From Actinomycetes bacterium (lineage in GTDB: Bacteria; Auribacterota; JAJCYG01), in contig JAJCYG010000036.1 of assembly GCA_029263055.1 (NCBI GenBank), forward strand, positions 6,708 through 70,707: a stretch of DNA of 64,000 nt. The letters run 5' to 3'. This document shows, piece after piece, positions 6,586-48,721 of the stretch (the first letter of the stretch is position 1; every line of letters starts with the position of its first letter). The notes beneath the pieces were generated by a model, which ran no database searches, was not told where the DNA came from, and saw only the letters and a program-made list of their open reading frames with translations. A program made the translations under genes and the position numbers.

Positions 6586-7506
6586 CTATTTTATTCTATT
6601 AATGACAGCGTTATAGAGGAGACGTCCCTTATAGTCGATAAATTCCGCTCGCATCTGATCTTTGTTTATTGTTAGACCTAAAAATCCACAGATTCCTTGA
6701 GAAAATAAAGCCTCATCTTTGCCTGTTTCTCTTGTTTTGCAGCCTGTCCCTGAAACAAGATAATCAATCGTGCCATGTGGATTGAGGTGTTGGAGGTTGT
6801 GCTCATGGCCACAGAGGTATGCTTGAACAGAATATTTTTCTAATATCGGTTTTACATGTTTGATTAACTCTTCTGATTTTTTATATCTTGGACCTGCAGA
6901 ATAAACTGGATGATGGCCAATAACAATGTTCCATTGAGCCTTTGATTCAGAAAGTGTTTTTTCAAGCCATTTAAGTTGTCGGCCAATCTCTTGATTCTTT
7001 AAATTCTGTTCAAATTTTTTAATGGTGTAATAAAAAAGGATAAAAGGGTTGGTATCTAAAAAGATAAACCGCACTGAGTTTTGAGCATCTATTTGTTTAT
7101 CAATAAAGTAATAACGAGCCGGTAGATTCCATCGATTGCTTATCTTTGAGTAGTCAATTTGAGCTTGGAGATTGCCTGAATAATCATGGTTGCCTAATGA
7201 AGCATACCAAGGAACCATTAAAGATGGGGCAGTATAGACATCTTCAAAAGCATTGTCCCATTTGGGATCTTCAGTACTTTTAACTCCATCTGTATAAAAG
7301 TTATCACCTGTTGTGAGAATGAAATTAGACTGATATTTTTTTGCATAACGGCCCATTTGTTTAGCCACAGATCGTTGGAGGTAAGAGCCTCTTTTTCCCC
7401 AATCACCTAAGGCGATAAAATTAAGATTAGGCTCAGAAATTTGTGGCTGATAGGGTGCTTCAAAACTTAAATATTTTTCAGTAAATAAAACAAATAGACA
7501 TGACAA
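6586..7506 (-). CDS. Purple acid phosphatase-type calcineurin-like metallophosphoesterase
   Basis: GDWG, GDNFY, GNHDY and GHEH metal-ligand motifs occur in the canonical PAP order. There is an N-terminal hydrophobic signal/anchor. Confidence 0.8.
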   Translation of the reverse strand: MSCLFVLFTEKYLSFEAPYQPQISEPNLNFIALGDWGKRGSYLQRSVAKQMGRYAKKYQSNFILTTGDNFYTDGVKSTEDPKWDNAFEDVYTAPSLMVPWYASLGNHDYSGNLQAQIDYSKISNRWNLPARYYFIDKQIDAQNSVRFIFLDTNPFILFYYTIKKFEQNLKNQEIGRQLKWLEKTLSESKAQWNIVIGHHPVYSAGPRYKKSEELIKHVKPILEKYSVQAYLCGHEHNLQHLNPHGTIDYLVSGTGCKTRETGKDEALFSQGICGFLGLTINKDQMRAEFIDYKGRLLYNAVINRIK

Positions 7507-7562
7507 AATAACGAGGCAACATGTGGCAATAATAAAGAATGGCTTTGGCCTATGAGACTTTT

Positions 7563-8132
7563 TCAGTGGAGAGTGTCCTTAAGTTCATTTATTGAAACAA
7601 AAGCAGAAATCATTAATAAAACAGAACCTATGGCTTCGGTTGCCTCTTCTAAATAGTCCTCTATAGGATCAATGATGCTTCTATCTATTGAAACGCTAGA
7701 GTGTAAGGCGCCATGATCTAGAGAGTACCCTAACACCCATAGAAAAAAGGTGGTAGACCAAAGAAGTAAGAGTGTGGGTTGTTGTTTAAGAGCAGCGATG
7801 ATCAATGAGCGCTTTGGATAAGCCCAGAAAATCGCAATTAATATTAAAGTGTAATAGGGGACACTAGAAAAAGGATCCCAATTAAATTCAACGCCATGCC
7901 AGTCCCTAACAGATAAAGCCACTAAAATAGTTCCAAACCAGATAGAAAAAAGGTGTTTGTTTATCCTGTAGTTTAAAAAGCAAAAGAGTGTGCCAATAAC
8001 AAGAGAAGCAAGAGAAAGTATTTCCCAAAAATTTTTATCAAGTCCTAATTGATCTGAAGGAAAATAGAGGGCAAAAAGAATAAGGGTTATAGAAAAAAAA
8101 CCAAGTATGCTTTTAAAGAGAGCCTTCTTCAT
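7563..8132 (-). CDS. Integral membrane protein, unknown function (5-6 TM)
   Basis: 189 aa, strongly hydrophobic with multiple predicted TM helices. It lies 13 nt downstream of the ArnT-like gene on the same strand. Confidence 0.5.
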   Translation of the reverse strand: MKKALFKSILGFFSITLILFALYFPSDQLGLDKNFWEILSLASLVIGTLFCFLNYRINKHLFSIWFGTILVALSVRDWHGVEFNWDPFSSVPYYTLILIAIFWAYPKRSLIIAALKQQPTLLLLWSTTFFLWVLGYSLDHGALHSSVSIDRSIIDPIEDYLEEATEAIGSVLLMISAFVSINELKDTLH

Positions 8133-8145
8133 GTCTTAATCACCT

Positions 8146-9579
8146 TCAGTTATTGATAGCAGTGACAACATGGTACGTGTCGCTTCCAATTTTCTGAGTC
8201 ATTCGAATTGTGATCTCTTCTTTAAAAGTATCTTCCATTTTAGGCTTTTGAATTAAAGCCACATTATTTGGATTTGACTTTAAAAATTGGATGAGTCTAT
8301 TGCTATCGTCTATCTTTTTTATAACATGGTCTCCTCCTAAATAATAGAGAAAAGATTCTTTGAAAAATTGATAGCTCGCACATTCTCCATTATTCTGTAC
8401 CAAGGGCTTGATTTGATTGCAAAGGGATCGAGCTGATTTGTATTTGTCTAAAACCGGATAAAAAACGAGCAGTACAAGAGTATAAATCGATGTAGCCACT
8501 ATTAGAATGACATAAAAAGCGCGCTTTATTTTAGCTTTAGAGACTAGTTGTGAAAAGTATTGGCTTAAGAAGAGTGCAAAAGCAGGAAATAGCGGAAGAA
8601 GGTAAAGACTCCGTTTTGAGTCTGAAAGAGTAAAGAAAATAAAAACAAGGCTAAACCAGACAATGAGAAATTTATGAGAAGGCGTTAACTTTTCTTTTGC
8701 TCGGCGTAATTGAATAATGGCTAAAGGAAGAAAAAAGATCCAAGGCATTGCATCGACGGGGAAGTTAATAAAATAATAGTAAAAGGGACGTATGTGCCCT
8801 GATGGGGCTATATAGCGAAAAAAATTGTGAACAATAAAATGTTGATAAAGGTATTCAGAACCTGCTTGCTCGTAGGCAAGCCAAACCCAAACCCCTATTG
8901 TAGAGACAAGGATTAAGAGTCCTAACGGAATCCACATCTTTAATAAAAAACTGAGCTGACGTTGCCACAGAAGAAAGAAAAAGATGATGCCGCATGGAAT
9001 AAGAATGCCAATAGGGCCCTTTGTTAAAAACCCCCCCGCCAAGGTTAGGTAAAAGACAAACCATAGACACGCTTCTTTATCATCAGAATATTTTGGCTTT
9101 GAGGTATACACAGTCCAAAAGAGAGCTAAAGATGAAAGAATAAAAAAAGCGAGAAGCATATCGAGCTGACCCCATGATGCTTGCCACCAGAAGCGATAGG
9201 TGGTGGCTAAAATCAGCATGGCGATCAATCCGGTTTTTAAATCAAACATCTCTTTGCCTAAGTGAATAAGAATTAAGAGCGCCAAAACAGCTGCTATGGC
9301 TGAAGGAATGCGTGCTGTAAAAGCATTAGTTTCCCCTTTAAAAAAAAGTTTGGATGCTGCAACCGTGACCCAAACATAAGCAGGAGGTTTGTCAGTATAG
9401 ATTTCTCCGTTTAAGTGAGGAACCGTGTAGTTTTCTGTCTGTATCATTTCCCGGGCAACTTGGGCAAACCGCGGTTCGTCTGGATTCCAAAGGTCGCGAG
9501 TACTAATCCCTACGAGAAGGACAAAGCTAAAAAAGACCAAAAAGAGGCTGGCCCAACGTTTAGTGATTGTTATATCCAT
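8146..9579 (-). CDS. ArnT/PMT-family (GT39/GT83) polyprenyl-phosphate-sugar-dependent glycosyltransferase, probably modifying lipid A or core
   Basis: The N-terminal DEPRFAQVAREM...PHLNGEIYTDKPPAYVWV is the signature of 4-amino-4-deoxy-L-arabinose transferase / protein-O-mannosyltransferase-family enzymes. At least 10 TM helices. 477 aa. Confidence 0.75.
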   Translation of the reverse strand: MDITITKRWASLFLVFFSFVLLVGISTRDLWNPDEPRFAQVAREMIQTENYTVPHLNGEIYTDKPPAYVWVTVAASKLFFKGETNAFTARIPSAIAAVLALLILIHLGKEMFDLKTGLIAMLILATTYRFWWQASWGQLDMLLAFFILSSLALFWTVYTSKPKYSDDKEACLWFVFYLTLAGGFLTKGPIGILIPCGIIFFFLLWQRQLSFLLKMWIPLGLLILVSTIGVWVWLAYEQAGSEYLYQHFIVHNFFRYIAPSGHIRPFYYYFINFPVDAMPWIFFLPLAIIQLRRAKEKLTPSHKFLIVWFSLVFIFFTLSDSKRSLYLLPLFPAFALFLSQYFSQLVSKAKIKRAFYVILIVATSIYTLVLLVFYPVLDKYKSARSLCNQIKPLVQNNGECASYQFFKESFLYYLGGDHVIKKIDDSNRLIQFLKSNPNNVALIQKPKMEDTFKEEITIRMTQKIGSDTYHVVTAINN

Positions 9580-9664
9580 GAGGGATAAGATCTCTTATTC
9601 TTTTTCATGTTTAGATAAAGTCTAACTTCTATAGTTAAATGGAAGATGAACAGAAAATTAAAAT

Positions 9665-11107
9665 TTATTCATCTTTGGCTGGAAAGGTTAGGTTAAAGAC
9701 GGTTCCTTTGCCTTCTGTGCTCTCTACAGAAATTGTTCCGTTATGAGAGAGCACAATGGATTGAACTAACGAAAGCCCTAGGCCATAGCCTTTGCTGTTT
9801 CTCGATTTGTCTGTCCGGTAGAAGCGATTAAAAAGGTGTGGGAGATCTGTTGTAGAGATTCCTTTGCCATTGTCTTTGATTGTCACAGAGATCGTGCCAT
9901 TATTTCGTTTAGCTTCAACTTCAATGAGGTCTGCCTTAGCATGCTTGGCAGCATTAGATGTGAGGTTATAAAGAGCCTGGTTTAGAAGTCTATAATTACC
10001 TTGGATAGTTAATGGGATTTGTCTGTCTGTTTTTGTTTCTACTTTTGTGGATTGGTTTTCTGCCTCTAAAAGTATCTGAGTCTGTTCTTGAACTTCTTCA
10101 ATTAATTGAGTGAGATTAAATGTTTCTGTCTCCTGAGGTTTGTTTTTTCTGGCATCAAGCTTAGCAAGCAGGAGTAGGTTTTTAATAATTGCGATGAGGT
10201 GGTTGACTTCGTTTAGACTTTCTGTGAGAAGTAATTGGTATTCACTCGACGTTCTTTCTCGGGTTAGTGCCACCTCTATAGATCCTTTTAAGGCTGTTAA
10301 TGGTGTATTTAGTTCATGTGACGCAGCAGCGCTAAACTGTTTTTCTCGTTCAAAGGAGGTCTCTAGTCTAAATAGCATTTGTTTTAAGGACTCAGTTAGT
10401 TTTTGAATTTCAATAGGCCCTTTTTGAGGGAGGTCAATTGATTGAAAATTCTCTGCTTCTTTAATTTTTTCTGCTTCTTGTACGATTTTGTCTAGAGGCT
10501 TTAGTCCTTGTTTAGAAATAAAGTAAATAATGATAGAGGACAAAATTGAAATAATAGGTATCCAGACCAGTAAAGTGGCTAAAAATCGTTTTGTGGCCCA
10601 ATAAACATTTTTTAATGATTTTGCAATGATGATGTGATAAATCTGTCCCTCTTTGTCTCGGTAAAGATAATGGAGTTGTATAAGAGGTGTCTCTTTATTG
10701 ATGGCATCTGCTTTAAATGAAGTCGTATTGACTTTTAAGCCAGTATTAAAAATAGGCATCCTCTTGTTTCGTGCATTGGGAGATCTGAAAAGTTTTGTGT
10801 GGCCTTGCCTTTGAATCCAAACCAGTTCATTGATTCCTTCAAGATCTTCTTCTAGGTCGACTTCTTCTTCGGTATGACCTAGTTCTTTAGCTAGCTTAAA
10901 CTCATCATTGTCTTCATCAATAATTCGAGTGAGTAGTTTGACTTGATTGGTTAGGTTCTTTTTTACTTCTAAGTCTGTTACTTTTTTATAAGAATAAAAA
11001 AGAACAGCAACAGTCGTAATCATGGCACCGACAAGAATCAATGAGTTGAATAAGGTTAAACGTGTTTTAAAAGAGCTAAACAGATTCAGTTTTTTCTTTA
11101 AGGACAT
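9665..11107 (-). CDS. Two-component sensor histidine kinase (PmrB/BasS-like genomic position)
   Basis: H-box SHELNTPLTAL. HATPase_c block GYGLGLSLVQSIVLSHNGTISVESTEGKGTVFNLTFP. Two TM helices flank a periplasmic domain. I chose the start at the internal MSLKKK (ATG 11107), which leaves a 28-nt gap after the regulator gene. The track ORF extends to 11212. Confidence 0.8.
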   Translation of the reverse strand: MSLKKKLNLFSSFKTRLTLFNSLILVGAMITTVAVLFYSYKKVTDLEVKKNLTNQVKLLTRIIDEDNDEFKLAKELGHTEEEVDLEEDLEGINELVWIQRQGHTKLFRSPNARNKRMPIFNTGLKVNTTSFKADAINKETPLIQLHYLYRDKEGQIYHIIIAKSLKNVYWATKRFLATLLVWIPIISILSSIIIYFISKQGLKPLDKIVQEAEKIKEAENFQSIDLPQKGPIEIQKLTESLKQMLFRLETSFEREKQFSAAASHELNTPLTALKGSIEVALTRERTSSEYQLLLTESLNEVNHLIAIIKNLLLLAKLDARKNKPQETETFNLTQLIEEVQEQTQILLEAENQSTKVETKTDRQIPLTIQGNYRLLNQALYNLTSNAAKHAKADLIEVEAKRNNGTISVTIKDNGKGISTTDLPHLFNRFYRTDKSRNSKGYGLGLSLVQSIVLSHNGTISVESTEGKGTVFNLTFPAKDE

Positions 11108-11759
11108 AGCCTCTACCTCTAAGTGTGTGAATAAATTTGTTTGGACTCTCTTGACTGATTTTATTGCGTAACCGATTAATGTAGACATCAATAATATTAG
11201 TCTCTGTATCAAAGTTTAATCCCCAAACATTTTCAGCAATCATGGTTCGAGTGAGAACTATGTTGGGATTGCGCATGAAATATTCTAAAAGAGTGTATTC
11301 TTTTGTTGTTAGTTCTATAAGCTTTTCATTACATTTTGCTTGGTGTTTCACAGTATCGAGTTCTATATTTTGGATTTGAATAAGGTGGGATGTTATTGAT
11401 GTTCCTCTGCGTAATAGGGCGCGAATACGTGCCAAAAGCTCGGCAAAGGAAAAGGGCTTGGTTAAGTAATCGTCTGCCCCTGCATTAAGACCTTTGATCT
11501 TGTCTTCAACTACATCCTTAGCTGTGAGCATTAGGATTGGAGTTGAAATATTGTTTCCTCGAATCTCTTGGCAGACTTGAAAGCCATCTTTAATAGGCAA
11601 AAGGATATCTAGGAGAATGAGGTCATATGGAGCGTTAATCGCGTAATCAATCCCATCTTGGCCGTTATTAACTACATCAACGATATAGCTCTCCTCTTCA
11701 AGTCCTTTTTTGATGAAACTAGAGACTTTGGGCTGATCTTCTATCACAAGAATTTTCAT
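11076..11759 (-). CDS. OmpR/PhoB-family response regulator (PmrA/BasR-like genomic position)
   Basis: MKILVIEDQPKV...DLILLDILLP...LMLTAKD...GADDYLTKPF is a receiver domain. The C-terminus is winged-helix (LTTKEYTLLEYFMRNPN...RLRNKI). I chose the start at MKILVIED (ATG 11759) by family convention. The track ORF starts at 11792. Confidence 0.85.
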   Translation of the reverse strand: MKILVIEDQPKVSSFIKKGLEEESYIVDVVNNGQDGIDYAINAPYDLILLDILLPIKDGFQVCQEIRGNNISTPILMLTAKDVVEDKIKGLNAGADDYLTKPFSFAELLARIRALLRRGTSITSHLIQIQNIELDTVKHQAKCNEKLIELTTKEYTLLEYFMRNPNIVLTRTMIAENVWGLNFDTETNIIDVYINRLRNKISQESPNKFIHTLRGRGYVLKEKTESV

Positions 11760-11796
11760 AGCGTGGTAGTTTAGCATACAATAGGGACTCATCCTT

Positions 11797-11830
11797 ACAG
11801 ATACTTAATATTATATTAATAAGTATCTGT
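11797..11830. promoter_or_regulatory. Imperfect palindrome ACAGATACTT-N14-AAGTATCTGT immediately upstream of the response-regulator gene; candidate operator
   Basis: Ten-bp perfect arms around an AT-rich spacer, lying in the 295-bp divergent intergenic region between the regulator gene and the PilZ-methyltransferase gene. Confidence 0.35.
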
Positions 11831-12087
11831 AAATAAATATTTTATGATTATTATATTTTGATTTGTCTCAATTTTTCTTCTATGAAGAGGTGCTCGAGAG
11901 AGGCTTAAATAAATTTTTGACCCAGATCTTGGGGTAAGGTTCTTCTGACGTGGGGCTTGCTACACAATATGCTTCAAGTTATCAAATTGAGGTTATTGAC
12001 ATAATTGTAAGTATTTACAAATTTGGAATAAGTTGATAGCCTAATCGAGTTCGTTTTCTTAACCCTTAAAAGAGAAGATAGGCAGTC

Positions 12088-13899
12088 ATGAAAAACCAGT
12101 CAAACACTGTCGACCGTCGTAAGTTTAATCGAACAGAAATAGCTCCTAAAGAGAGTTATTCTTTTCAGGCTTATTCTCTTAAACGAAACATGCCAGAACA
12201 GTTAATGGGTGAATTACTCGATTTTTCTCTTCAAGGTGCTGGCATAAAACTCCTTTCAGTTCAAAACCCTTTAAATAAAGGGGATTTTCTTTATGGAATC
12301 CAATTTGGCCGTCCTGATGGCGAAGAGGTTTCCAAAGCTGTGGGTGTGATTCGCTCAACCGACACTGTACTTGATGACAGTGGCCAACCTTTTTGGAGAG
12401 TTGGCGTCGAGCTTATCAATATCCCTGGCGAGCAAAAGAATGCTGTCTCCAATTCAGAATTTCCAGTTCGTCCTCAACGTTATGAAATTGACGCTGAATG
12501 CGAAGAGCTCACCGAAGTTGCTTTTCAAATAGATAACGAATCTCTTTTCGGAAAACTACACAATGTTTCTAAATTTGGTTTAGCGGTTAAGATTGGCCGA
12601 GAAGCGCCACTAAAATTAAACGTAGGTCGTTATTTAGAGGGTGTTGAAGTTAAAGTTGATGGCGAAATGGTTTTTACAGGGTTTTTAGTGATCCGTAATT
12701 TGCGCCAAACTCAAGACTTTACTCTGATCGGTTGTGAAGTAACAGGAAGTTTAATTGATGTGGATCAAATTTTAGAAAATCAGAAAATAGTTCATTACAA
12801 ATCAAGAGCCAAAGAAAAATGTCTTTCCTTAAGTGAAATCCAACGTATTCCAAATGATTTTAAGGCTCTCGTCGCTGATTTTCGTTATTGCTTAGATAAA
12901 TTTCATAACGAACTAGAGCGTCCCTACGCCAATGATTCTAAAGATAAAGTGGTCCGAGAAGTTTATCCTTTATTTAAATCTCTTGTAGATGAAGTTTATT
13001 CAAAGTTCCGTCGTTGCGTTGAAAATATTTCAGCAGAAGAACATGAATCGTACAAAAACTATTTTCAAAAACAATTGCACCCTCTTTTATTAACCGCCCC
13101 TTTTATTAAACACACCTATCAAAAGCCACTTGGTTATGCGGGTGACTATGACATGGTGCTTAAGGTGTTAGACAAAGAGATCGAAGGGTCGACCTTTCTT
13201 TCAAAACTGCTCAACATGTATTGTTGGAATATGAACGCGGCTGAAGCCCATCGAAATCGAATCACTTATTTAGTTGATTTGCTTCAAGAGGTTGTCAGTA
13301 CTAAAGAACATCGCGAGATCTTAGTGATTGGATCTGGGCCTGCTCGGGAAATTAAACTCTTTTTAAATAAGGCTCCAGCAGATGTTGATTGTACGTTTAC
13401 GCTGCTTGATTTTGATTCAAGAGCGCTCACTCATAGCCAAGAAGAATTGCTTTCTGAGGTGTTGAAAAATCGCTCAAACGTAAAAATCAAATTTATGAAC
13501 AAAAGTGTGCGCCAAATCATTAAGTCCAAGAGCTGTGATACTAATACTGGTAAGTATGATCTGGTTTACTGCGCGGGGCTATTTGATTATCTTTCAGATC
13601 CATTCTGCGTTAAGATGCTGGAAATAATGGGATTACATCTAAAACCTACAGGGCGTATGATTGCCACAAACGTGACAGAGCTCAATTATTACCGATACTT
13701 CATGGAATTCATGGGAGAGTGGTATTTGACACACCGGTCTCTCGATGCTATGTTGAACTTAGCGACTGGTTTACAGAAAAAACATGGGATGTTCGCAGAC
13801 TGTGAAGTGGATGCCACAGGGGTTAATGTATTCTTAAATGTTCAAAAAAGCAAAGAAAACACAGGCACAGCAGACTCCAGCCTTACAAAGTGCTTATAA
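12088..13899 (+). CDS. PilZ-like domain(s) fused to a class I SAM-dependent methyltransferase
   Basis: N-terminal RRKFNRTEI ... LLDFSLQGAGIK (RxxxR plus DxSxxG = PilZ c-di-GMP-binding signature). A second, degenerate copy follows (VRPQRYEI ... LHNVSKFGLAV). The C-terminal half has EILVIGSGPAREI (motif I) and LVYCAGLFDYLSDP, typical of SAM methyltransferases. Confidence 0.55.
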   Translation: MKNQSNTVDRRKFNRTEIAPKESYSFQAYSLKRNMPEQLMGELLDFSLQGAGIKLLSVQNPLNKGDFLYGIQFGRPDGEEVSKAVGVIRSTDTVLDDSGQPFWRVGVELINIPGEQKNAVSNSEFPVRPQRYEIDAECEELTEVAFQIDNESLFGKLHNVSKFGLAVKIGREAPLKLNVGRYLEGVEVKVDGEMVFTGFLVIRNLRQTQDFTLIGCEVTGSLIDVDQILENQKIVHYKSRAKEKCLSLSEIQRIPNDFKALVADFRYCLDKFHNELERPYANDSKDKVVREVYPLFKSLVDEVYSKFRRCVENISAEEHESYKNYFQKQLHPLLLTAPFIKHTYQKPLGYAGDYDMVLKVLDKEIEGSTFLSKLLNMYCWNMNAAEAHRNRITYLVDLLQEVVSTKEHREILVIGSGPAREIKLFLNKAPADVDCTFTLLDFDSRALTHSQEELLSEVLKNRSNVKIKFMNKSVRQIIKSKSCDTNTGKYDLVYCAGLFDYLSDPFCVKMLEIMGLHLKPTGRMIATNVTELNYYRYFMEFMGEWYLTHRSLDAMLNLATGLQKKHGMFADCEVDATGVNVFLNVQKSKENTGTADSSLTKCL

Positions 13900-16399
13900 A
13901 TCCTATATAGTCCAATCTAATATCAAACGTCTCCGGGTGGGTTGCTTGCTCGGTGGTACTTTAGTGCCTCTTGGTTCTCTTTTCGATTACTTCATTTATC
14001 CAGAGCTTTTTAAATCGTTTCTTCTTGTTAGGTTATTCTTTGGCCTACTCTACGGTTTGATCTACCTTGTTTCATTTACAGAATTCACTAGAAAGCATTC
14101 TGTTGGGATGATGCTTTTCTTAACAGAGTCCATTGCCATTCCTATTGTGATGATGATCTGTTTTACCGGTGGGTATCTCTCGCCTTATTATGCGGGCCTT
14201 AATCTTATTATTTTAGGCGTAGGGGTATTGTTTACTTGGATGATCTCTGAAGCTGTGATTGTTTGTCTCTTGATCTATCTAACTTATTTAATTCCTGTTC
14301 TATTATTAGATACAATTACCGACTACCACACTTTTTTTAATAACAATTATTTTATTTCCTTTACGATTATCATTGCTGTAGTGAGTAACTACTTTGCTTC
14401 AAAATTGCGCGAAAGTGATTTTGTGAGTCGTCACAAACTAGGGGCAGCGGTCAAGCAGTTGAATGAACTTGATAAAGCAAAAACCAGTTTTTTCTCAGGT
14501 ATCAGCCACGAATTAAGAACGCCTTTAACTTTGATCTTAGCTCCTATTGAAAATTTATTAAAACAATCTAAATTAAACAAAGAAACCAGAGGTCGTTTAG
14601 AAATATGCCATAGCAATGCGCTCCGTCTTTTAAAATTAATTAACAATTTATTGGATGTGGTTCGCATTAACACAGGGCGAATGGAGTTGCGCTATTCTAA
14701 TAAAGACGTGACAAAATTGTTAAAACAAGTTGTGGTCAATGTTTCATCAATGGCTGAGAAGAAAAATATTAAAATAGAGTTTGTCTCTAAAGGAAATGGG
14801 TTCACCTTTTTTTGGGATGAAGATCAGCTGGAAAAAGTGATTGTGAATTTAATTTATAACTCTTTAAAATTTACCCCTGAACAAGGAACCATTAAGGTGG
14901 GGTGTAAAGATAAAGGGGATGAGGTTGTTATTTCTATTAAAGATAGCGGAATTGGTATTCCAGAAGATCAAGTGGGAAGAGTATTTGACACCTTTTATCA
15001 GGTCGACTCAGGGAGCAAGCGAAGTTATGAGGGGAGTGGAATGGGACTTTCTTTATGCCGTCAAATCGTGGAATTGCATGGAGGCAAGATTTGGGCTGAA
15101 AGCAAACTAGGCGAAGGAACAAAAATGATTTTCACCCTTCCTAAGAAATTGGAGGTAAATGCTTCGAAGATAAAGACTGAAATCAAGGACGAAGATTGGA
15201 CCAAGCAAGTTAGTAAAGAAGCTATTTATGAAAAAGGTGAAGTCGGTATTTTAGATAGTGAAGATAAAAAGAGGGCTGCAGAGCCTGATCAAACAAATCA
15301 TGACGGATCAGGAACCGTTTTAGTGGTTGAAGATAATCATGATATGCGTGAGTTTGTCTGTCTTGAAATGGCCAATACATACACTGTTTTGAGTGCTATG
15401 AATGGGCAAGAAGGTTTAGAAATTGCAGAGAAAGAAAGTCCTGATTTGATTATTAGCGATGTGATGATGCCGGTGATGGATGGTTATGAGTTGTGCCGTC
15501 ATTTAAAAGCAGGTGAAAAGACCAAACAAATCCCAGTGCTCATGCTCACAGCTAAAACAGAACTCGACATGCGCCTCTCAGGGTATGAACAGGGTGCTGA
15601 TGATTATGTGGCTAAGCCATTTAATTTAGAAGAGCTTATGGCTAAAGCTAAAGCTTTAATCCAAGGGCGTCGACTCGAGCGTGAGATGGAAGTTTACCGT
15701 CGCCTTGCCTCTGTTGGAGAGTTGGCAGCAGGTGTGGCCCATGAAATTAATAACGCGCTCAATGTGGCTGTATTAGCAAACTCTCGATTGAAAAAATTGG
15801 TCACTAATCAAGCTGGAGGTGAGCAGTTACAGGTTGAAACGTTTTTAAAGGAATCAGGCAAAGGAATAGACCTCTTAAACGAAGGGATTGGTCGTGCACA
15901 TGGTGTGGTAAAAAGTCTCTTAACTTTTTCACAAAAAAATTCAGAAGGATTTAAAAAACAAAATATTCAAGAAGGTTTGAATTCTACTTTAACCATGCTT
16001 GAGAGTGATCTCAAAATAAAAGCAAAAGTAGTTAAAGTTTATTCTAAAGAAAATGAAGCTTATTGTGATTTAAATCAGCTGAATCAAGTCTTTCTCAATA
16101 TTTTGAAAAACTCAATTGAAGCGATTACTGAAAATGGGATAATTACTCTTAAGACGTGGGTGGATGAAGAAAATTATTTTGTGTCGATTAAAGACAATGG
16201 ACATGGTATTGCCAAAGAAGAGGTTGGCCGAATTTTTGATCCTTTTTTTACAACAAAGCCAGTGGGTCAGGGAACAGGATTAGGTTTGAGTGTGAGCTAC
16301 AATATTATGCAGGAGCATGGTGGTTCACTTATTTGCAAAAGCGAACCCGACCAAGGGGCCGAGTTCATTCTTTCGCTTCCAATCTCGTTAACTAAATAA
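13838..16399 (+). CDS. Hybrid sensor kinase with unusual HK-REC-HK architecture (6-7 TM sensor, HisKA/HATPase, receiver, second HisKA-like/HATPase)
   Basis: Six to seven N-terminal TM helices. First H-box SHELRTPLTLI plus GSGMGLSLCRQIVELHGGKIW. Receiver VLVVEDNHDMREF...LIISDVMMPVMDG...DDYVAKPF. Second H-box AAGVAHEINNALNV plus GTGLGLSVSYNIMQEHGGSL. The start is uncertain: the track ORF overlaps the upstream gene by 62 nt. Confidence 0.8.
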   Translation: MFKKAKKTQAQQTPALQSAYKSYIVQSNIKRLRVGCLLGGTLVPLGSLFDYFIYPELFKSFLLVRLFFGLLYGLIYLVSFTEFTRKHSVGMMLFLTESIAIPIVMMICFTGGYLSPYYAGLNLIILGVGVLFTWMISEAVIVCLLIYLTYLIPVLLLDTITDYHTFFNNNYFISFTIIIAVVSNYFASKLRESDFVSRHKLGAAVKQLNELDKAKTSFFSGISHELRTPLTLILAPIENLLKQSKLNKETRGRLEICHSNALRLLKLINNLLDVVRINTGRMELRYSNKDVTKLLKQVVVNVSSMAEKKNIKIEFVSKGNGFTFFWDEDQLEKVIVNLIYNSLKFTPEQGTIKVGCKDKGDEVVISIKDSGIGIPEDQVGRVFDTFYQVDSGSKRSYEGSGMGLSLCRQIVELHGGKIWAESKLGEGTKMIFTLPKKLEVNASKIKTEIKDEDWTKQVSKEAIYEKGEVGILDSEDKKRAAEPDQTNHDGSGTVLVVEDNHDMREFVCLEMANTYTVLSAMNGQEGLEIAEKESPDLIISDVMMPVMDGYELCRHLKAGEKTKQIPVLMLTAKTELDMRLSGYEQGADDYVAKPFNLEELMAKAKALIQGRRLEREMEVYRRLASVGELAAGVAHEINNALNVAVLANSRLKKLVTNQAGGEQLQVETFLKESGKGIDLLNEGIGRAHGVVKSLLTFSQKNSEGFKKQNIQEGLNSTLTMLESDLKIKAKVVKVYSKENEAYCDLNQLNQVFLNILKNSIEAITENGIITLKTWVDEENYFVSIKDNGHGIAKEEVGRIFDPFFTTKPVGQGTGLGLSVSYNIMQEHGGSLICKSEPDQGAEFILSLPISLTK

Positions 16400-22144: not shown

Positions 22145-22693
22145 ATGATTTTGTCAGATCAAACCCTAAAGCAGTACCTTGAAGAAGGCAAACTTAAGAT
22201 CGATCCTATTGAAGATAATTCTGTTCAGCCTGCTTCTGTGGATTGCACATTAGGTTCGCATTTTTTAGTGATCGATGAAAACAGCATGGGTTTGCTTACA
22301 ATGGATGATGAAATCAAGTACCGCACAATTGAAGCTGATAGTATTACCTTGCCACCCCATTCTTTTATTTTAGCTACAACCCGAGAAGAGGTTGAACTGC
22401 CTGATGATTTAACAGCATTTGTAGAAGGGCGCAGTTCTATTGGTCGCATGGGATTGTTTATTCAAAACGCGGGTTGGGTTGACCCTGGTTTTAAAGGGCG
22501 TATTACTTTAGAACTTTATAATGCAAATTCTCTTCCTATTAAGCTTGAAGCTGGTCGTCGTATTTGCCAGCTTGTTTTTTGTAAAATGAGTAGCCGTGCT
22601 TCTAAACCTTATCAAGGTAAGTATCAAGGTCAAACAACCACTGTTGGAAGCCGTGTTTTTAAAGATGTGGATAAGGGTGCTTCTGCGGTTTAA
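22145..22693 (+). CDS. dcd: dCTP deaminase
   Basis: 182 aa. MILSDQTLKQYLEEGKLKIDP...VDCTLG...GRSSIGRMGL...DPGFKGRITLELYN is the dCTP deaminase/dUTPase-fold signature. Confidence 0.85.
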   Translation: MILSDQTLKQYLEEGKLKIDPIEDNSVQPASVDCTLGSHFLVIDENSMGLLTMDDEIKYRTIEADSITLPPHSFILATTREEVELPDDLTAFVEGRSSIGRMGLFIQNAGWVDPGFKGRITLELYNANSLPIKLEAGRRICQLVFCKMSSRASKPYQGKYQGQTTTVGSRVFKDVDKGASAV

Positions 22694-24888
22694 GCTGCTT
22701 CTTCTTTGGCTGAAGCTAAGGGGAGTGTGAAGTAAAAAATAGTGCCTTTACCCATTTTGCTTTCTGCCCAAATTTTTCCACCATGGCGAACAATAATGCG
22801 TTGCACAATAGCCAGACCTGCTCCGGTTCCTTTAAAGTTTTGCTTGTCGTGGAGTCGTTGAAAAACAGTGAATAGTTTGTTGATTTCTTTCATGTTAAAA
22901 CCAACCCCATTATCTTGAATGTAAAAGGTTAGTTTTCCTTTCTTTTCAATGGCGCCAATTTCGATTATAGATAGTTCTTGGTTCTTAGTGAATTTAATGG
23001 CATTGCCCATTAGATTGCTTATGACTTGACGAATCATGACTTCATCTCCTAAAACATGTGGAAGAGGAGAAGCTATTTTTAAAAGACAGACTCTATCTGG
23101 TTCTAAAAGTTTAAAGTCTTCAAAGACTTCTTTGCACATTGACTCAATATTAAAATCATTCGTAAGAATTTCTTTTCGACTTAATTGGGAATAGACCATG
23201 AGGTCTTCAATAAGGTCTCCCATTTGCTGAGTGTGATCTTGGATGTGGTTTAGATAGCTTTTGCCTTCTTTATCGAGCTTGTCGTGATGTGTCTCTGATA
23301 AAAGTTTGCTAAAACCACCAATTAACGTTAGAGGAGTTCTTAATTCATGAGAAATGGAATAAGAAAAAGCTTCTAATTCTTGAACCAAATCCTTTAGTTC
23401 TTCTGTTCGCTGTTCAACTCTTTTTTCTAGATCAAAGTTAAGGTGTTGGATTTTCTGTTCGGCTTTCTTCTGTTCTGTGATGTCGAGAATAAAACAAGCG
23501 CACTCATTTTGTGATTCTGGCAAAAGAGCTGCTCCAATCAAGATAGGCACTCTTGAGCCATCCTTGTAGAAGTATTCTTTTTCATAAGGAGTGGCTGTCC
23601 CTTTCATCTTAAGTTCTTGGACAGCAAACTCATCTTTTGGCTGCCATTCTTCGGGTGTGAGTTTTGTCCATTTACAAGGCATATCTTTTTCTGTAAGGCC
23701 GAGCATTTGTAGAAAAGCGTCATTGCCTTCGATTATGTTTCCATTAAAGTTGGCAATTGTGATTCCAATTATTTTTGAATTAAAGAGAAGGTTCATTCGT
23801 TCTTCAATTTTTTTGCGTGCCTCTTGTTCTTTTTTGATCTCACTTAAATCTCGAACTAAACAAATAATCCCTAAAAATTCATTTTTTTTGTCCTTCATTG
23901 AGTTGGCCGAAATACTGGCATAAATCTCTTTACCTTTATCTGTTGTGATATCTATTTCAGCTTGTTTGACGGGTGTGTCATGGTCGATTAGATTATTCCA
24001 CTGGTTTTGAGAAATGATTTGAGGTGCGATGCAATGAATCGATTTTCCGATGAGATCTTTTTCTTTTATTTCAAATAGAGTGCATGCTGTTTCATTAACA
24101 ACTCGAATGGCTCCATCTCTATCTAAAACTAAGAGAGCGTCACCTAAGTGATCCATTACCTCATTGATGCTGTAAGTAGAGGGGATATCTTGTAAATGAA
24201 AACGTCTTACAGTAAAGGCTGCAAGGAGTGCAAAGATAGAAATAGGAAGAAATCCCACAGGATAAATTGGGATGCCAAATTTAACTAAGTAATCAACAGC
24301 ACCTAGTAGAGCAATGAGAAAGGCAATTAAAAACAGAGTGACTCGATGATGGTGGCGAGAGTGGGTAGGGGTTATTTTGTAAGCATTCCAATAATGCTTA
24401 ATGCTTAAAACCATGAGTGTGAAAAAGAAAGCCAAAAAAGGAAGGCTGAGCAATCCGTATTGTGGGTAATAACCCCAGTTAAAGAGTTGGACATGTGTAA
24501 TAAATTGATTTGTAAATAATGCTGCTCCAGAAAATCCTGTGGCCATTAACATAATGCTCCAAAACCGAATTTTATAATGGGAGCTTAATTGTAAAATTGA
24601 GAGCGCAAATAAATAGATACTAACAGGAAGAAAGGGGACACCTATATAGGCAAGTTTAGACCAAGAAAGAGCCACTTCAGGAAGTTCTGCACAATACATC
24701 ATTGAAAAACAAAAGAGCCAAATAGATAGGGTTGAAGTGAGAAAAAAGAATTTGAGACTGACTTGAGAGGCTTTTTCTCGCACTAAAACAACGGAGCCAA
24801 GTGCTGTGAGAAGGACTGCGGTCAAAAACAGTGGGACCGCATGTGGGTTAAACGTATAATTTATAAAATGAAAAAACTCTCTCCACAT
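22690..24888 (-). CDS. Sensor histidine kinase with a 7-TM sensor region and PAS domains
   Basis: About 7 N-terminal TM helices and two PAS-like segments. H-box SHELRTPLTLIGGF. HATPase_c GTGAGLAIVQRIIVRHGGKIWAESKMGKGTIFYFTLP. Convergent with dcd, overlapping by 4 nt. Confidence 0.8.
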   Translation of the reverse strand: MWREFFHFINYTFNPHAVPLFLTAVLLTALGSVVLVREKASQVSLKFFFLTSTLSIWLFCFSMMYCAELPEVALSWSKLAYIGVPFLPVSIYLFALSILQLSSHYKIRFWSIMLMATGFSGAALFTNQFITHVQLFNWGYYPQYGLLSLPFLAFFFTLMVLSIKHYWNAYKITPTHSRHHHRVTLFLIAFLIALLGAVDYLVKFGIPIYPVGFLPISIFALLAAFTVRRFHLQDIPSTYSINEVMDHLGDALLVLDRDGAIRVVNETACTLFEIKEKDLIGKSIHCIAPQIISQNQWNNLIDHDTPVKQAEIDITTDKGKEIYASISANSMKDKKNEFLGIICLVRDLSEIKKEQEARKKIEERMNLLFNSKIIGITIANFNGNIIEGNDAFLQMLGLTEKDMPCKWTKLTPEEWQPKDEFAVQELKMKGTATPYEKEYFYKDGSRVPILIGAALLPESQNECACFILDITEQKKAEQKIQHLNFDLEKRVEQRTEELKDLVQELEAFSYSISHELRTPLTLIGGFSKLLSETHHDKLDKEGKSYLNHIQDHTQQMGDLIEDLMVYSQLSRKEILTNDFNIESMCKEVFEDFKLLEPDRVCLLKIASPLPHVLGDEVMIRQVISNLMGNAIKFTKNQELSIIEIGAIEKKGKLTFYIQDNGVGFNMKEINKLFTVFQRLHDKQNFKGTGAGLAIVQRIIVRHGGKIWAESKMGKGTIFYFTLPLASAKEEAA

Positions 24889-47410: not shown

Positions 47411-47581
47411 TCTGACAAATTTGTACATCCTCTTGCAGAAATGTTCCTAACCTAAAATTCCAACATAGATTGTAAGTCACTCAATATAAGCTAATTATAA
47501 CCTTATCTATTTAAACTCTTTTCCTCTCAAATGGCTCTTTTTGCGGTATGGAAGTTGCATATTAATGGGGTAGGGGGAAAT

Positions 47582-48721
47582 ATGGAACAAAATTTAAAAT
47601 GCTTAGTTGTGGATGATGAAAAGAGCAACTTAGATGCATTTTTGACTGTTTTTGGAGATGACTTTGATTTGGTGCCAGCCCTGAGTGGACGTGAAGCACT
47701 CACTATTTTAGATGAAGATCAATCGATTGCTGTGGTGGTTTCAGATCAACGCATGGATGAAATGACAGGTGTGGAATTGCTTGAAGAGGTAAAGAAAAAA
47801 TACCCTGAAATTGTGCGCATTGTTTTAACGGGATACAGTGATTACCAGGTTTCGATTGATGCGATTAATAAGGGGGATGTTTTTCGTTATCTGCATAAGC
47901 CAATTGATATGGACGAAACAACCAATGCCATTGAAGAAGGTCTTAAAAAATATAAAAAATCAGTTGAAGAAAAAAAGAGCATTGAAGATACCAAAGAACA
48001 AATCCGAAAACGTTTTTTAGAAATTAATGAATCGCTTGGGGCTGGCATTGCCCATTACGTGAACAATGGACTTGTTCCGGCTAAAACGTTCTTAACATTT
48101 CTTCCAGAAAAAGCAAAAGAACTTAAAGAAGGAAATTACGACTCAACCTATTTTGAAAACTTTTTAGAAGAAGCGGTTAAAAACATTGAAGGGATTGAAG
48201 GTTTAACTGAGTCGTTGTTATGGGCGCACAATGCGCAAATAGAAGGTTTTGAGAGTGTGCCTGTTTCAGATGTTTTTGACTTAGAAGCCTCTGAATTTAA
48301 GGATCTTTTATCAAAAAAGAATTTAAAAATTAATAGTGAAATGGAAAGAGATCTTCCTTCTCTTTTTGTCGATAAAATAAAAGTAAAAGAGATGTTTGTG
48401 CTTTTATTAAAATTTTGTGCAGTAGCCTCTTCAGAAGGACAATCCATTGAAATAAGAGCGTCAAAAACCACAGATCAACCGGATGTTTCTTCCGTCCGTT
48501 TTGAAATCGGCTATCATGGAAAGGGGTATGCCCCTAAAGACATTCCTCGTATTTTTGACCCTTTTTACAAGTTTGACGAACAGCTCAATACCGAGGTCAA
48601 AGGGCTCGAACTAACCAACTGCTATATCACCTCGCTCAAACATGGTTTTGAGCTTAAAGTCGAGAGTGACCCGGGTAAAGAGACTGCTTTTATCGTGGAT
48701 CTCCCGTTTCTTGTCTCTTAA
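47582..48721 (+). CDS. Response-regulator receiver fused to a histidine-kinase-like module (REC-HisKA-like-HATPase)
   Basis: Receiver CLVVDDEKSNL...VVVSDQRMDEMTG...IVLTGYSD...K. Then GAGIAHYVNNGL (H-box-like) and a C-terminal HATPase-like GxG region. Start at MEQNLK (47582), with GGGGGA upstream. Confidence 0.65.
   Translation: MEQNLKCLVVDDEKSNLDAFLTVFGDDFDLVPALSGREALTILDEDQSIAVVVSDQRMDEMTGVELLEEVKKKYPEIVRIVLTGYSDYQVSIDAINKGDVFRYLHKPIDMDETTNAIEEGLKKYKKSVEEKKSIEDTKEQIRKRFLEINESLGAGIAHYVNNGLVPAKTFLTFLPEKAKELKEGNYDSTYFENFLEEAVKNIEGIEGLTESLLWAHNAQIEGFESVPVSDVFDLEASEFKDLLSKKNLKINSEMERDLPSLFVDKIKVKEMFVLLLKFCAVASSEGQSIEIRASKTTDQPDVSSVRFEIGYHGKGYAPKDIPRIFDPFYKFDEQLNTEVKGLELTNCYITSLKHGFELKVESDPGKETAFIVDLPFLVS

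Follow-up and report, generated by a model that had tools for sequence, protein, structure and literature searches.

A PhcB-family methyltransferase with two N-terminal PilZ-type barrels, and its possible c-di-GMP input into a phc-like signalling module

A gene in which PilZ-type domains, the receptors of cyclic dimeric guanosine monophosphate (c-di-GMP), are joined to a methyltransferase raises the question of what the enzyme methylates and whether the nucleotide controls it. Such a gene is located at positions 12088–13899 on the + strand of a 64,000-nucleotide stretch of contig JAJCYG010000036.1 (assembly GCA_029263055.1, Auribacterota), here called the window. The open reading frame (ORF) encodes 603 amino acids (aa) in the order PilZ domain, PilZ-like barrel, helical region and class I methyltransferase, as assigned from Pfam, an AlphaFold2 model and homology to the signal synthase PhcB, of which it is a long-form homologue. 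A preliminary description, made from the sequence and its translations, had suggested c-di-GMP-gated methylation of a protein, a polysaccharide or a small molecule. Our reading of the locus, to which we give a probability of about 0.6, is that it encodes a quorum-sensing module of the phc type in which c-di-GMP acts as an input to the signal synthase. The identities of the parts, i.e. the domains and the relationships to PhcB, PhcS and PhcR, can be stated with high confidence.

The N-terminal module

The AlphaFold2 model of the whole protein, built on an alignment of 57 homologues, is confident (mean predicted local distance difference test, pLDDT, 87.8) and lays out a six-stranded barrel at aa 16–110, a disordered linker at 115–127, a second six-stranded barrel at 132–220, helices at 225–405 and a Rossmann fold at 409–592. 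The first barrel is a canonical PilZ domain (aa 9–120, positions 12112–12447, + strand), as judged from Pfam PF07238, conservation and Foldseek. The Pfam profile scores 33.1 bits on the full protein against a gathering cut-off of 22.5 (E 7.4e-8), and 37.2 bits on aa 1–245 alone. Two PilZ signatures had been reported at the correct spacing, and they are indeed found 30 residues apart: RRKFNR, corresponding to RRxxxR, at aa 10–15 (12115–12132, with RxxxR proper running from R11 to R15 at 12118–12132), and D45-F-S-L-Q-G50, corresponding to D-h-S-x-x-G, at aa 45–50 (12220–12237). The strands of this barrel span aa 25–109 in the model and form a six-stranded β-barrel resembling solved PilZ domains. 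A helix after the last strand is absent from the model, with the disordered linker in its place; such a helix is lost from the N-terminal barrel where tandem PilZ pairs evolve in the direction of two-barrel receptors like YcgR (10.1101/814665).

The inter-barrel linker (aa 115–127, pLDDT below 50) ends in R128-P129-Q-R131, an RPxR motif at 12469–12480 in which both arginines are invariant and the proline nearly so; linker and motif together occupy 12430–12480 on the + strand. The motif opens barrel 2 (aa 128–224, 12469–12759, + strand), which was defined by hhalign against barrel 1 and against the N-terminal barrel of PhcB. Barrels 1 and 2 match each other with 94.1% probability (E 1.2e-7), and the NVSKFG of barrel 2 (N159-V-S-K-F-G164, of the form N-h-S-x-x-G, 12562–12579, with S161 invariant) is aligned on DFSLQG. 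The Pfam PilZ profile finds a second weak stretch within aa 1–245 and no match in aa 131–245 alone. The degenerate second PilZ copy of the preliminary description is thus, on profile evidence, a real PilZ-like domain, six-stranded and, with NVSKFG and RPQR, less degenerate than had been claimed.

When a separate model of aa 1–250 is compared with the PDB by Foldseek, the top 27 matches are all PilZ c-di-GMP receptors. MrkH, MotI, PP4397, YcgR, VCA0042 and PlzA are aligned over about 230 columns covering both barrels, and single PilZ domains of YcgR, Alg44 and BcsA rank next, with template modelling scores of about 0.6 and 21–24% identity. The full model has 734 PDB matches at E ≤ 0.001, mainly methyltransferases among the matches listed. 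Sequence searches of the PDB chains with the single protein, an N-terminal profile and a family profile found no PilZ or PhcB structure, and fold comparison alone succeeded. The Pfam PilZN/YcgR families (PF07317/PF12945) have no match in the 603-aa protein, and NCBIfam has no model for it.

The long form is rare. An exhaustive phmmer search with aa 1–245 against 1.84 billion cluster representatives gave 15 matches at E ≤ 0.001, about 11 of them 586–613 aa long, and together with earlier matches these make up a set of 20 long forms that are 26–71% identical to the query. R11, R15, G50, G106, R128, R131, S161 and A166 are invariant in the N-terminal part of all 20, P129, Y132, N159 and G164 are conserved in at least 90%, and 17 of the 20 are independently matched by the Pfam PilZ profile (best E 2.6e-23). 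That conservation is concentrated at the positions predicted to contact the ligand speaks for binding of the nucleotide and against a function in structure alone.

Two further proteins touch on the origin of the module. P0250 (796 aa) has about 200 extra N-terminal residues with a further RRxxxR...DxSxxG pair (RRISERR...DISPEG), and apparently carries three PilZ-type units ahead of the PhcB core. P0248, a stand-alone protein of 131 aa, is the best match to the N-terminus besides the query's own cluster, with 34% identity to barrel 1 (query aa 6–107). The extra PilZ domain could have come from such a protein.

The methyltransferase and its relationship to PhcB

A C-terminal class I S-adenosylmethionine (SAM) methyltransferase had been proposed from the outset, and Pfam Methyltransf_12 does pass its threshold there, over aa 412–523. 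The Rossmann domain (aa 406–592, 13303–13863, + strand), assigned from Pfam Methyltransf_12/25, Foldseek and invariant columns, has motif I in the form IGSGPAREI (aa 414–422, 13327–13353; family consensus GCGPAxE) and an invariant acidic residue, D441, at the end of strand 2. The preceding helical region (aa 225–405, 12760–13302, + strand) is recognized by its modelled helices and by PhcB-family signatures.

The homologue search gave few full-length relatives of about 600 aa, along with more than 2000 proteins that are about 470 aa long and align with two-thirds of the query. These shorter proteins have barrel 2, the helical region and the methyltransferase in common with the query and are without barrel 1, and many of them carry the JGI label extracellular factor (EF) 3-hydroxypalmitic acid methyl ester biosynthesis protein, which we take to be the KEGG name for PhcB. 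The family-invariant motifs PLGYAGDY (13126–13149), HRNR (13249–13260) and YCAGLFDYL (13567–13593), and also EW..YR, lie outside the SAM site and are common to the query and PhcB of the Burkholderiaceae. Residues P347, G349, Y350, G352, D353, R389, N390 and R391 are invariant both in 57 family members and in the alignment of Burkholderiaceae PhcB.

Operons of the phcBSRQ type were reached from a homologue on a Paraburkholderia plasmid, which led to Cupriavidus and to a record labelled Ralstonia pickettii (L080). The consecutive ORFs of the latter encode 463, 453, 377 and 333 aa, with Pfam domains that fit the published descriptions of phcBSRQ, and the published sizes are 464–468 aa for PhcB, 368–374 for PhcR and 336–337 for PhcQ (PMC8578825). 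We take this operon as phcBSRQ because its ORF sizes and domains match those of published PhcB, PhcR and PhcQ. Query aa 312–582 align with aa 185–457 of its PhcB at 35% identity over 277 aa (E 6e-54).

By its sequence, the enzyme of the window is thus a PhcB-family autoinducer synthase. The preliminary description had left the substrate open; barrel 2, the helical region and the catalytic part are all homologous to the signal synthase, and since the enzyme belongs to the PhcB family the substrate is no longer an open question. PhcB of Ralstonia produces methyl 3-hydroxymyristate and methyl 3-hydroxypalmitate, which are diffusible autoinducers. The product of the window enzyme should be a signal of the fatty-acid-methyl-ester type, and a quorum-sensing role in this organism is likewise expected.

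The kinase neighbour and the conserved gene order

The methyltransferase gene is followed in the same direction by a gene at 13838–16399 (+ strand, 853 aa), and the two overlap by 62 nucleotides (nt). The identical overlap is present in the 71%-identical orthologue in GCA_040960315.1 (L002). The neighbour had been described as a histidine kinase–receiver–histidine kinase protein, and this domain order holds: a membrane sensor at aa 1–200 (13838–14437, + strand, with a weak Pfam MASE8 match, E 0.66) is followed by a first HisKA-HATPase unit containing H224 (14477–15148), a REC domain (15317–15649) and a second HisKA-HATPase unit (15662–16387), the last three assigned by Pfam and all on the + strand. 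A generic hybrid kinase it is not. Kinase aa 1–436 match PhcS 1–451 at E 3e-31, membrane part included (SPYYAGLNL in the kinase and SPYYVGLNL in PhcS), and H224 corresponds to the published PhcS phospho-acceptor H230; aa 493–848 match PhcR 10–366, its whole length, at E 2e-18. Because its halves align with PhcS and PhcR, the gene is regarded as a PhcS-PhcR fusion and as the candidate cognate sensor of the synthase. MASE8 is recorded for the kinase orthologues at related loci. The best NCBIfam name for the kinase, LvrA, had raised a Leptospira origin of the window. This was rejected, as the score of 347 is far below the threshold of 1200 and the named relatives of the organism's SufB (71–77% identity) are mostly Candidatus Omnitrophota metagenome-assembled genomes, a single marker by which the host is probably related to the Omnitrophota.

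The order methyltransferase, PhcS-like kinase, REC-HATPase protein is found in every related locus examined (L002/L003, L004, L005, L006 and L007/L008), and L009 has the order methyltransferase, kinase, REC, REC. The combined signalling unit with the overlapping kinase gene, as first suggested, is supported by this retention of the synthase–kinase order. Two of the loci have long forms more distant than that of L002, and the one in L005 is encoded next to two other separate genes, the three products being 603, 440 and 382 aa long, like phcB, phcS and phcR. L006, from Prosthecobacter sp. (Verrucomicrobiota), and L007/L008, on a large metagenomic contig, have a 470-aa synthase, a MASE8 kinase fused to a REC-kinase, and a REC-HATPase protein. 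In L002 a second MASE8-HisKA-HATPase-REC-HATPase paralogue (7254–9794, 846 aa) is located directly upstream of the PilZ-PhcB gene; the window is without such an upstream copy.

Unlike the related loci, the window has no REC-HATPase gene directly after the kinase, and no phcQ-type gene is adjacent to the synthase–kinase pair. A PhcR-like protein with REC and HATPase_c domains (396 aa) is encoded at 47531–48721 on the + strand, identified by Pfam and by its identity to the corresponding neighbours in related loci. It shows full-length identities of 46% to the neighbour in L005 (E 4e-132) and 45% to that in L002 (E 5e-121), and 30% identity to the receiver of Ralstonia/Cupriavidus PhcR (E 6e-22). 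Judged from these alignments, the protein is probably the PhcR-like third member of the module, its gene having been displaced from the other two.

The N-terminal barrel of ordinary PhcB

PhcB of ordinary length (about 465–480 aa) consists of an N-terminal β-barrel, a helical region and a Rossmann methyltransferase. By hhalign, barrel 2 of the long forms matches the N-terminal barrel of the 470-aa proteins, Ralstonia, Cupriavidus and Paraburkholderia included, with 97.8% probability (E 6.7e-13); barrel 1 against the barrel of classical PhcB is not significant. Because barrel 2 is homologous both to barrel 1 and to the PhcB barrel, the N-terminal domain of ordinary PhcB is by transitivity a degenerate relative of PilZ. 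No paper linking PhcB with the PilZ fold was found in the literature search, and this relationship appears to be new.

It offers a testable hypothesis on how the N-terminal domain is built in Ralstonia PhcB, where the adaptive substitution R22C lies. This substitution is outside the methyltransferase domain and the known functional domains, and signal synthesis is lowered and delayed by it; in addition, PhcQ may act on PhcB via its receiver domain (PMC6989110). In our alignment R22 falls on a barrel strand, five residues before the asparagine position of NxSxxG, and the genetics of R22C would be compatible with a regulatory role of the barrel.

Proposed mechanism and alternative explanations

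In the proposed mechanism c-di-GMP would bind to the PilZ module, either in barrel 1 or in the cleft that the linker makes with barrel 2, or in both, and would activate or inhibit the enzyme. As known two-barrel receptors do, the two barrels might close round the ligand, and the long helix joining barrel 2 to the catalytic domain would then move. The activity of the methyltransferase would change, and the released signal, of the fatty-acid-methyl-ester type, would come to depend on the cellular c-di-GMP. The PhcS-PhcR kinase, whose translation is coupled to that of the synthase, should sense this signal with its membrane domain, and the signal would be relayed via the kinase and the 47531–48721 protein. 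Gating of autoinducer synthesis by c-di-GMP, proposed by analogy with two-barrel receptors and with enzyme-fused PilZ domains (BcsA, Alg44), is the most likely mechanism and is given an even chance. More tentatively, the tandem PilZ module might broadcast the c-di-GMP state of the cell to its neighbours by gating autoinducer synthesis, and the N-terminal domain of all PhcB proteins, that of the Ralstonia virulence switch included, might be a relic of phc systems that began as c-di-GMP-gated, or a barrel that is still used as a regulatory handle.

Several observations weigh against this mechanism. Barrel 2 is without the canonical RxxxR and has the linker arginines spaced i, i+3 (RPxR), the serine of DxSxxG in barrel 1 is replaced in 6 of the 20 long forms (not in the window protein), and ordinary PhcB is active without PilZ motifs, so the role of its barrel may be unrelated to c-di-GMP. 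The 64-kb window contains no GGDEF, EAL or HD-GYP genes, and no Rfam family reaches its gathering score in it (no tRNA, rRNA or riboswitch, including the c-di-GMP riboswitch). On the enzymatic side, Methyltransf_12 passes narrowly, with 30.5 bits against a threshold of 30, and identity to characterized PhcB is only 27–35%, which means that the product may differ. In the alignment, the PhcB of the reference record (L080, 'Ralstonia pickettii strain RAL3') hardly differs from that of another (L060, 'Cupriavidus necator strain EM36'), and one species label may be wrong; both records are still within the clade where phcBSRQ was defined.

The motifs, the activity of ordinary PhcB and the lack of c-di-GMP enzymes in the window speak for a PhcB-type synthase and sensor pair whose barrels do not bind c-di-GMP and serve as a structural, dimerisation or protein-docking module, for instance for a receiver domain of the kinase or of the PhcR-like protein, much as PilZ-type domains that bind no nucleotide and the degenerate barrel of ordinary PhcB would do, and the suggested action of the PhcQ receiver on PhcB would suit such a role. 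However, no N-terminal residues are conserved more strongly among the 20 sequences than RRxxxR of barrel 1, the arginines of the linker and NxSxxG of barrel 2, a pattern that fits ligand contacts and not a scaffold, and non-binding barrels are considered unlikely. The modest identity to characterized PhcB leaves room for a different target under c-di-GMP control, such as the adjacent kinase, a protein substrate as for CheR, or a lipid or polyketide intermediate, which would come close to the effector with an open substrate in the preliminary description. Weak CheR-family matches in 4 of the 20 long forms point in this direction, as do the Foldseek neighbours of the methyltransferase, which include protein N-terminal methyltransferases and polyketide synthase C-methyltransferases besides small-molecule O-methyltransferases, and the precedent of MapZ-CheR1, where c-di-GMP controls a protein methyltransferase in trans. 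Against another target, the family motifs outside the SAM site are all common to Burkholderiaceae PhcB, the gene is tightly linked to a PhcS-type membrane sensor in every locus examined, as is to be expected of a synthase–receptor pair, and many homologues bear the JGI label of the methyl ester synthase, making this explanation improbable. It is hardly credible that the PilZ motifs match by chance or reflect faulty annotation. The motifs are short, the N-terminal profile search of PDB sequences gave no PilZ, and the N-terminal 243 aa had no matches in a word-indexed search; however, this last search missed even the query's own cluster, which reveals a limit of the index, and it is superseded by the phmmer search. 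The fortuitous match that the preliminary description had named as a refutation is itself refuted by the Pfam score above the gathering cut-off, by a fold search that returns PilZ receptors only, and by motifs kept in 20 homologues.

Comparison with known systems

The protein resembles classical PhcB in its barrel, helical region, methyltransferase and family motifs, and also in the kinase of PhcS type and the REC-kinase of PhcR type encoded after it. It differs from the classical 464–468 aa in having 603 aa and an extra canonical PilZ domain at the N-terminus, and the barrel that both share keeps in the window protein the NxSxxG and the RPxR linker that are lost in classical PhcB. In contrast to the classical phc operon, PhcS and PhcR are fused in the 853-aa protein and a phcQ-type gene is not adjacent, and the host is an uncultured bacterium, probably related to the Omnitrophota, and not a betaproteobacterium.

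With the two-barrel receptors (YcgR, MotI/DgrA, MrkH, PP4397, VCA0042/PlzD and PlzA) it has in common consecutive six-stranded barrels and an arginine-containing linker, and with the PilZ-PilZ proteins of the Bll4394 type, as defined in 10.1101/814665, motif residues in both barrels. In YcgR-like proteins the N-terminal barrel is degenerate and the C-terminal one canonical, whereas the order is reversed in the window protein, where the C-terminal barrel has RPxR. The resemblance to these receptors is structural only; they act on the motor or on DNA, and the module of the window is fused to an enzyme.

Catalytic partners of PilZ are found in the cellulose synthase BcsA and in Alg44 of alginate synthesis, where PilZ and a catalytic domain are in one polypeptide or complex and c-di-GMP switches the output on. 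There the PilZ domain is C-terminal or membrane-associated and belongs to polysaccharide synthases, whereas here a tandem at the N-terminus is joined to a soluble methyltransferase that presumably makes a signal. In MapZ-CheR1 of Pseudomonas aeruginosa a c-di-GMP-bound PilZ protein inhibits a methyltransferase in trans, and PDB entries 5xly and 5y4r are among our fold matches; these are separate proteins with a target of the chemoreceptor CheR family, whereas the window protein has a PhcB-type small-molecule methyltransferase in cis. The PilZ fusions that have been reviewed involve REC, GGDEF, EAL, HD-GYP, MCP, CheC, HlyD (Alg44), BcsA and Ser/Thr kinase, and the only methyltransferase in that review is CheR, bound in trans by MapZ (10.1101/814665).

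In the literature searched, MapZ-CheR was likewise the only link between PilZ and SAM methyltransferases, and searches on autoinducer synthases controlled by c-di-GMP via PilZ, and on phc systems from beyond the Burkholderiaceae, returned only general reviews or papers on Ralstonia and Cupriavidus. The view that a PilZ-methyltransferase fusion is not a described architecture agrees with this search, in which no description was found, although the combination is already visible in precomputed Pfam annotations. What appears to be new is the extra canonical PilZ domain on a PhcB scaffold, found in about 20 sequence clusters.

Quorum sensing and c-di-GMP signalling are the two main systems behind the choice of bacteria between a motile life and a sessile or virulent one. 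To our knowledge, the known links between them run via transcription or via receptors with GGDEF/EAL domains. A PilZ module within an autoinducer synthase would, if true, couple signal output directly and post-translationally to c-di-GMP, in the direction opposite to those links, and we found no description of such a coupling. Modules of the phcB-phcS-phcR type are also extended well beyond the plant-pathogen clade, to the Verrucomicrobiota and the uncultured, Omnitrophota-like lineage of the window.

Other features of the window

The intergenic region upstream of the phcB-like gene is shared with a divergent gene pair on the - strand (9665–11792), which encodes an OmpR-family regulator (REC and Trans_reg_C) and a HAMP-HisKA-HATPase kinase in overlapping ORFs; a similar pair of response regulator and HAMP kinase is found a few kb from the orthologous locus L002. 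An AT-rich palindrome (11795–11832) with 19-nt arms, no spacer and 89% complementarity (TTACAGATACTTAATATTA / TATTAATAAGTATCTGTAA) is located 3 nt upstream of the start of the OmpR-type response regulator, and may be an operator. A scan for promoters and terminators gave generic consensus matches only.

Four ORFs of the window matched 'EAL' or 'GYP' as regular expressions and were rejected, as they are by Pfam an amino-acid permease, a GDSL lipase, a glycosyltransferase and an EVE-domain protein. A sensor kinase at 22690–24888 (- strand) with HisKA_7TM, PAS and HisKA-HATPase domains has a sub-threshold match to a diguanylate-cyclase-like sensor and no GGDEF domain. The GC skew is positive in all 2-kb windows of the 64 kb, and this uniformity suggests that the window lies on one replichore.

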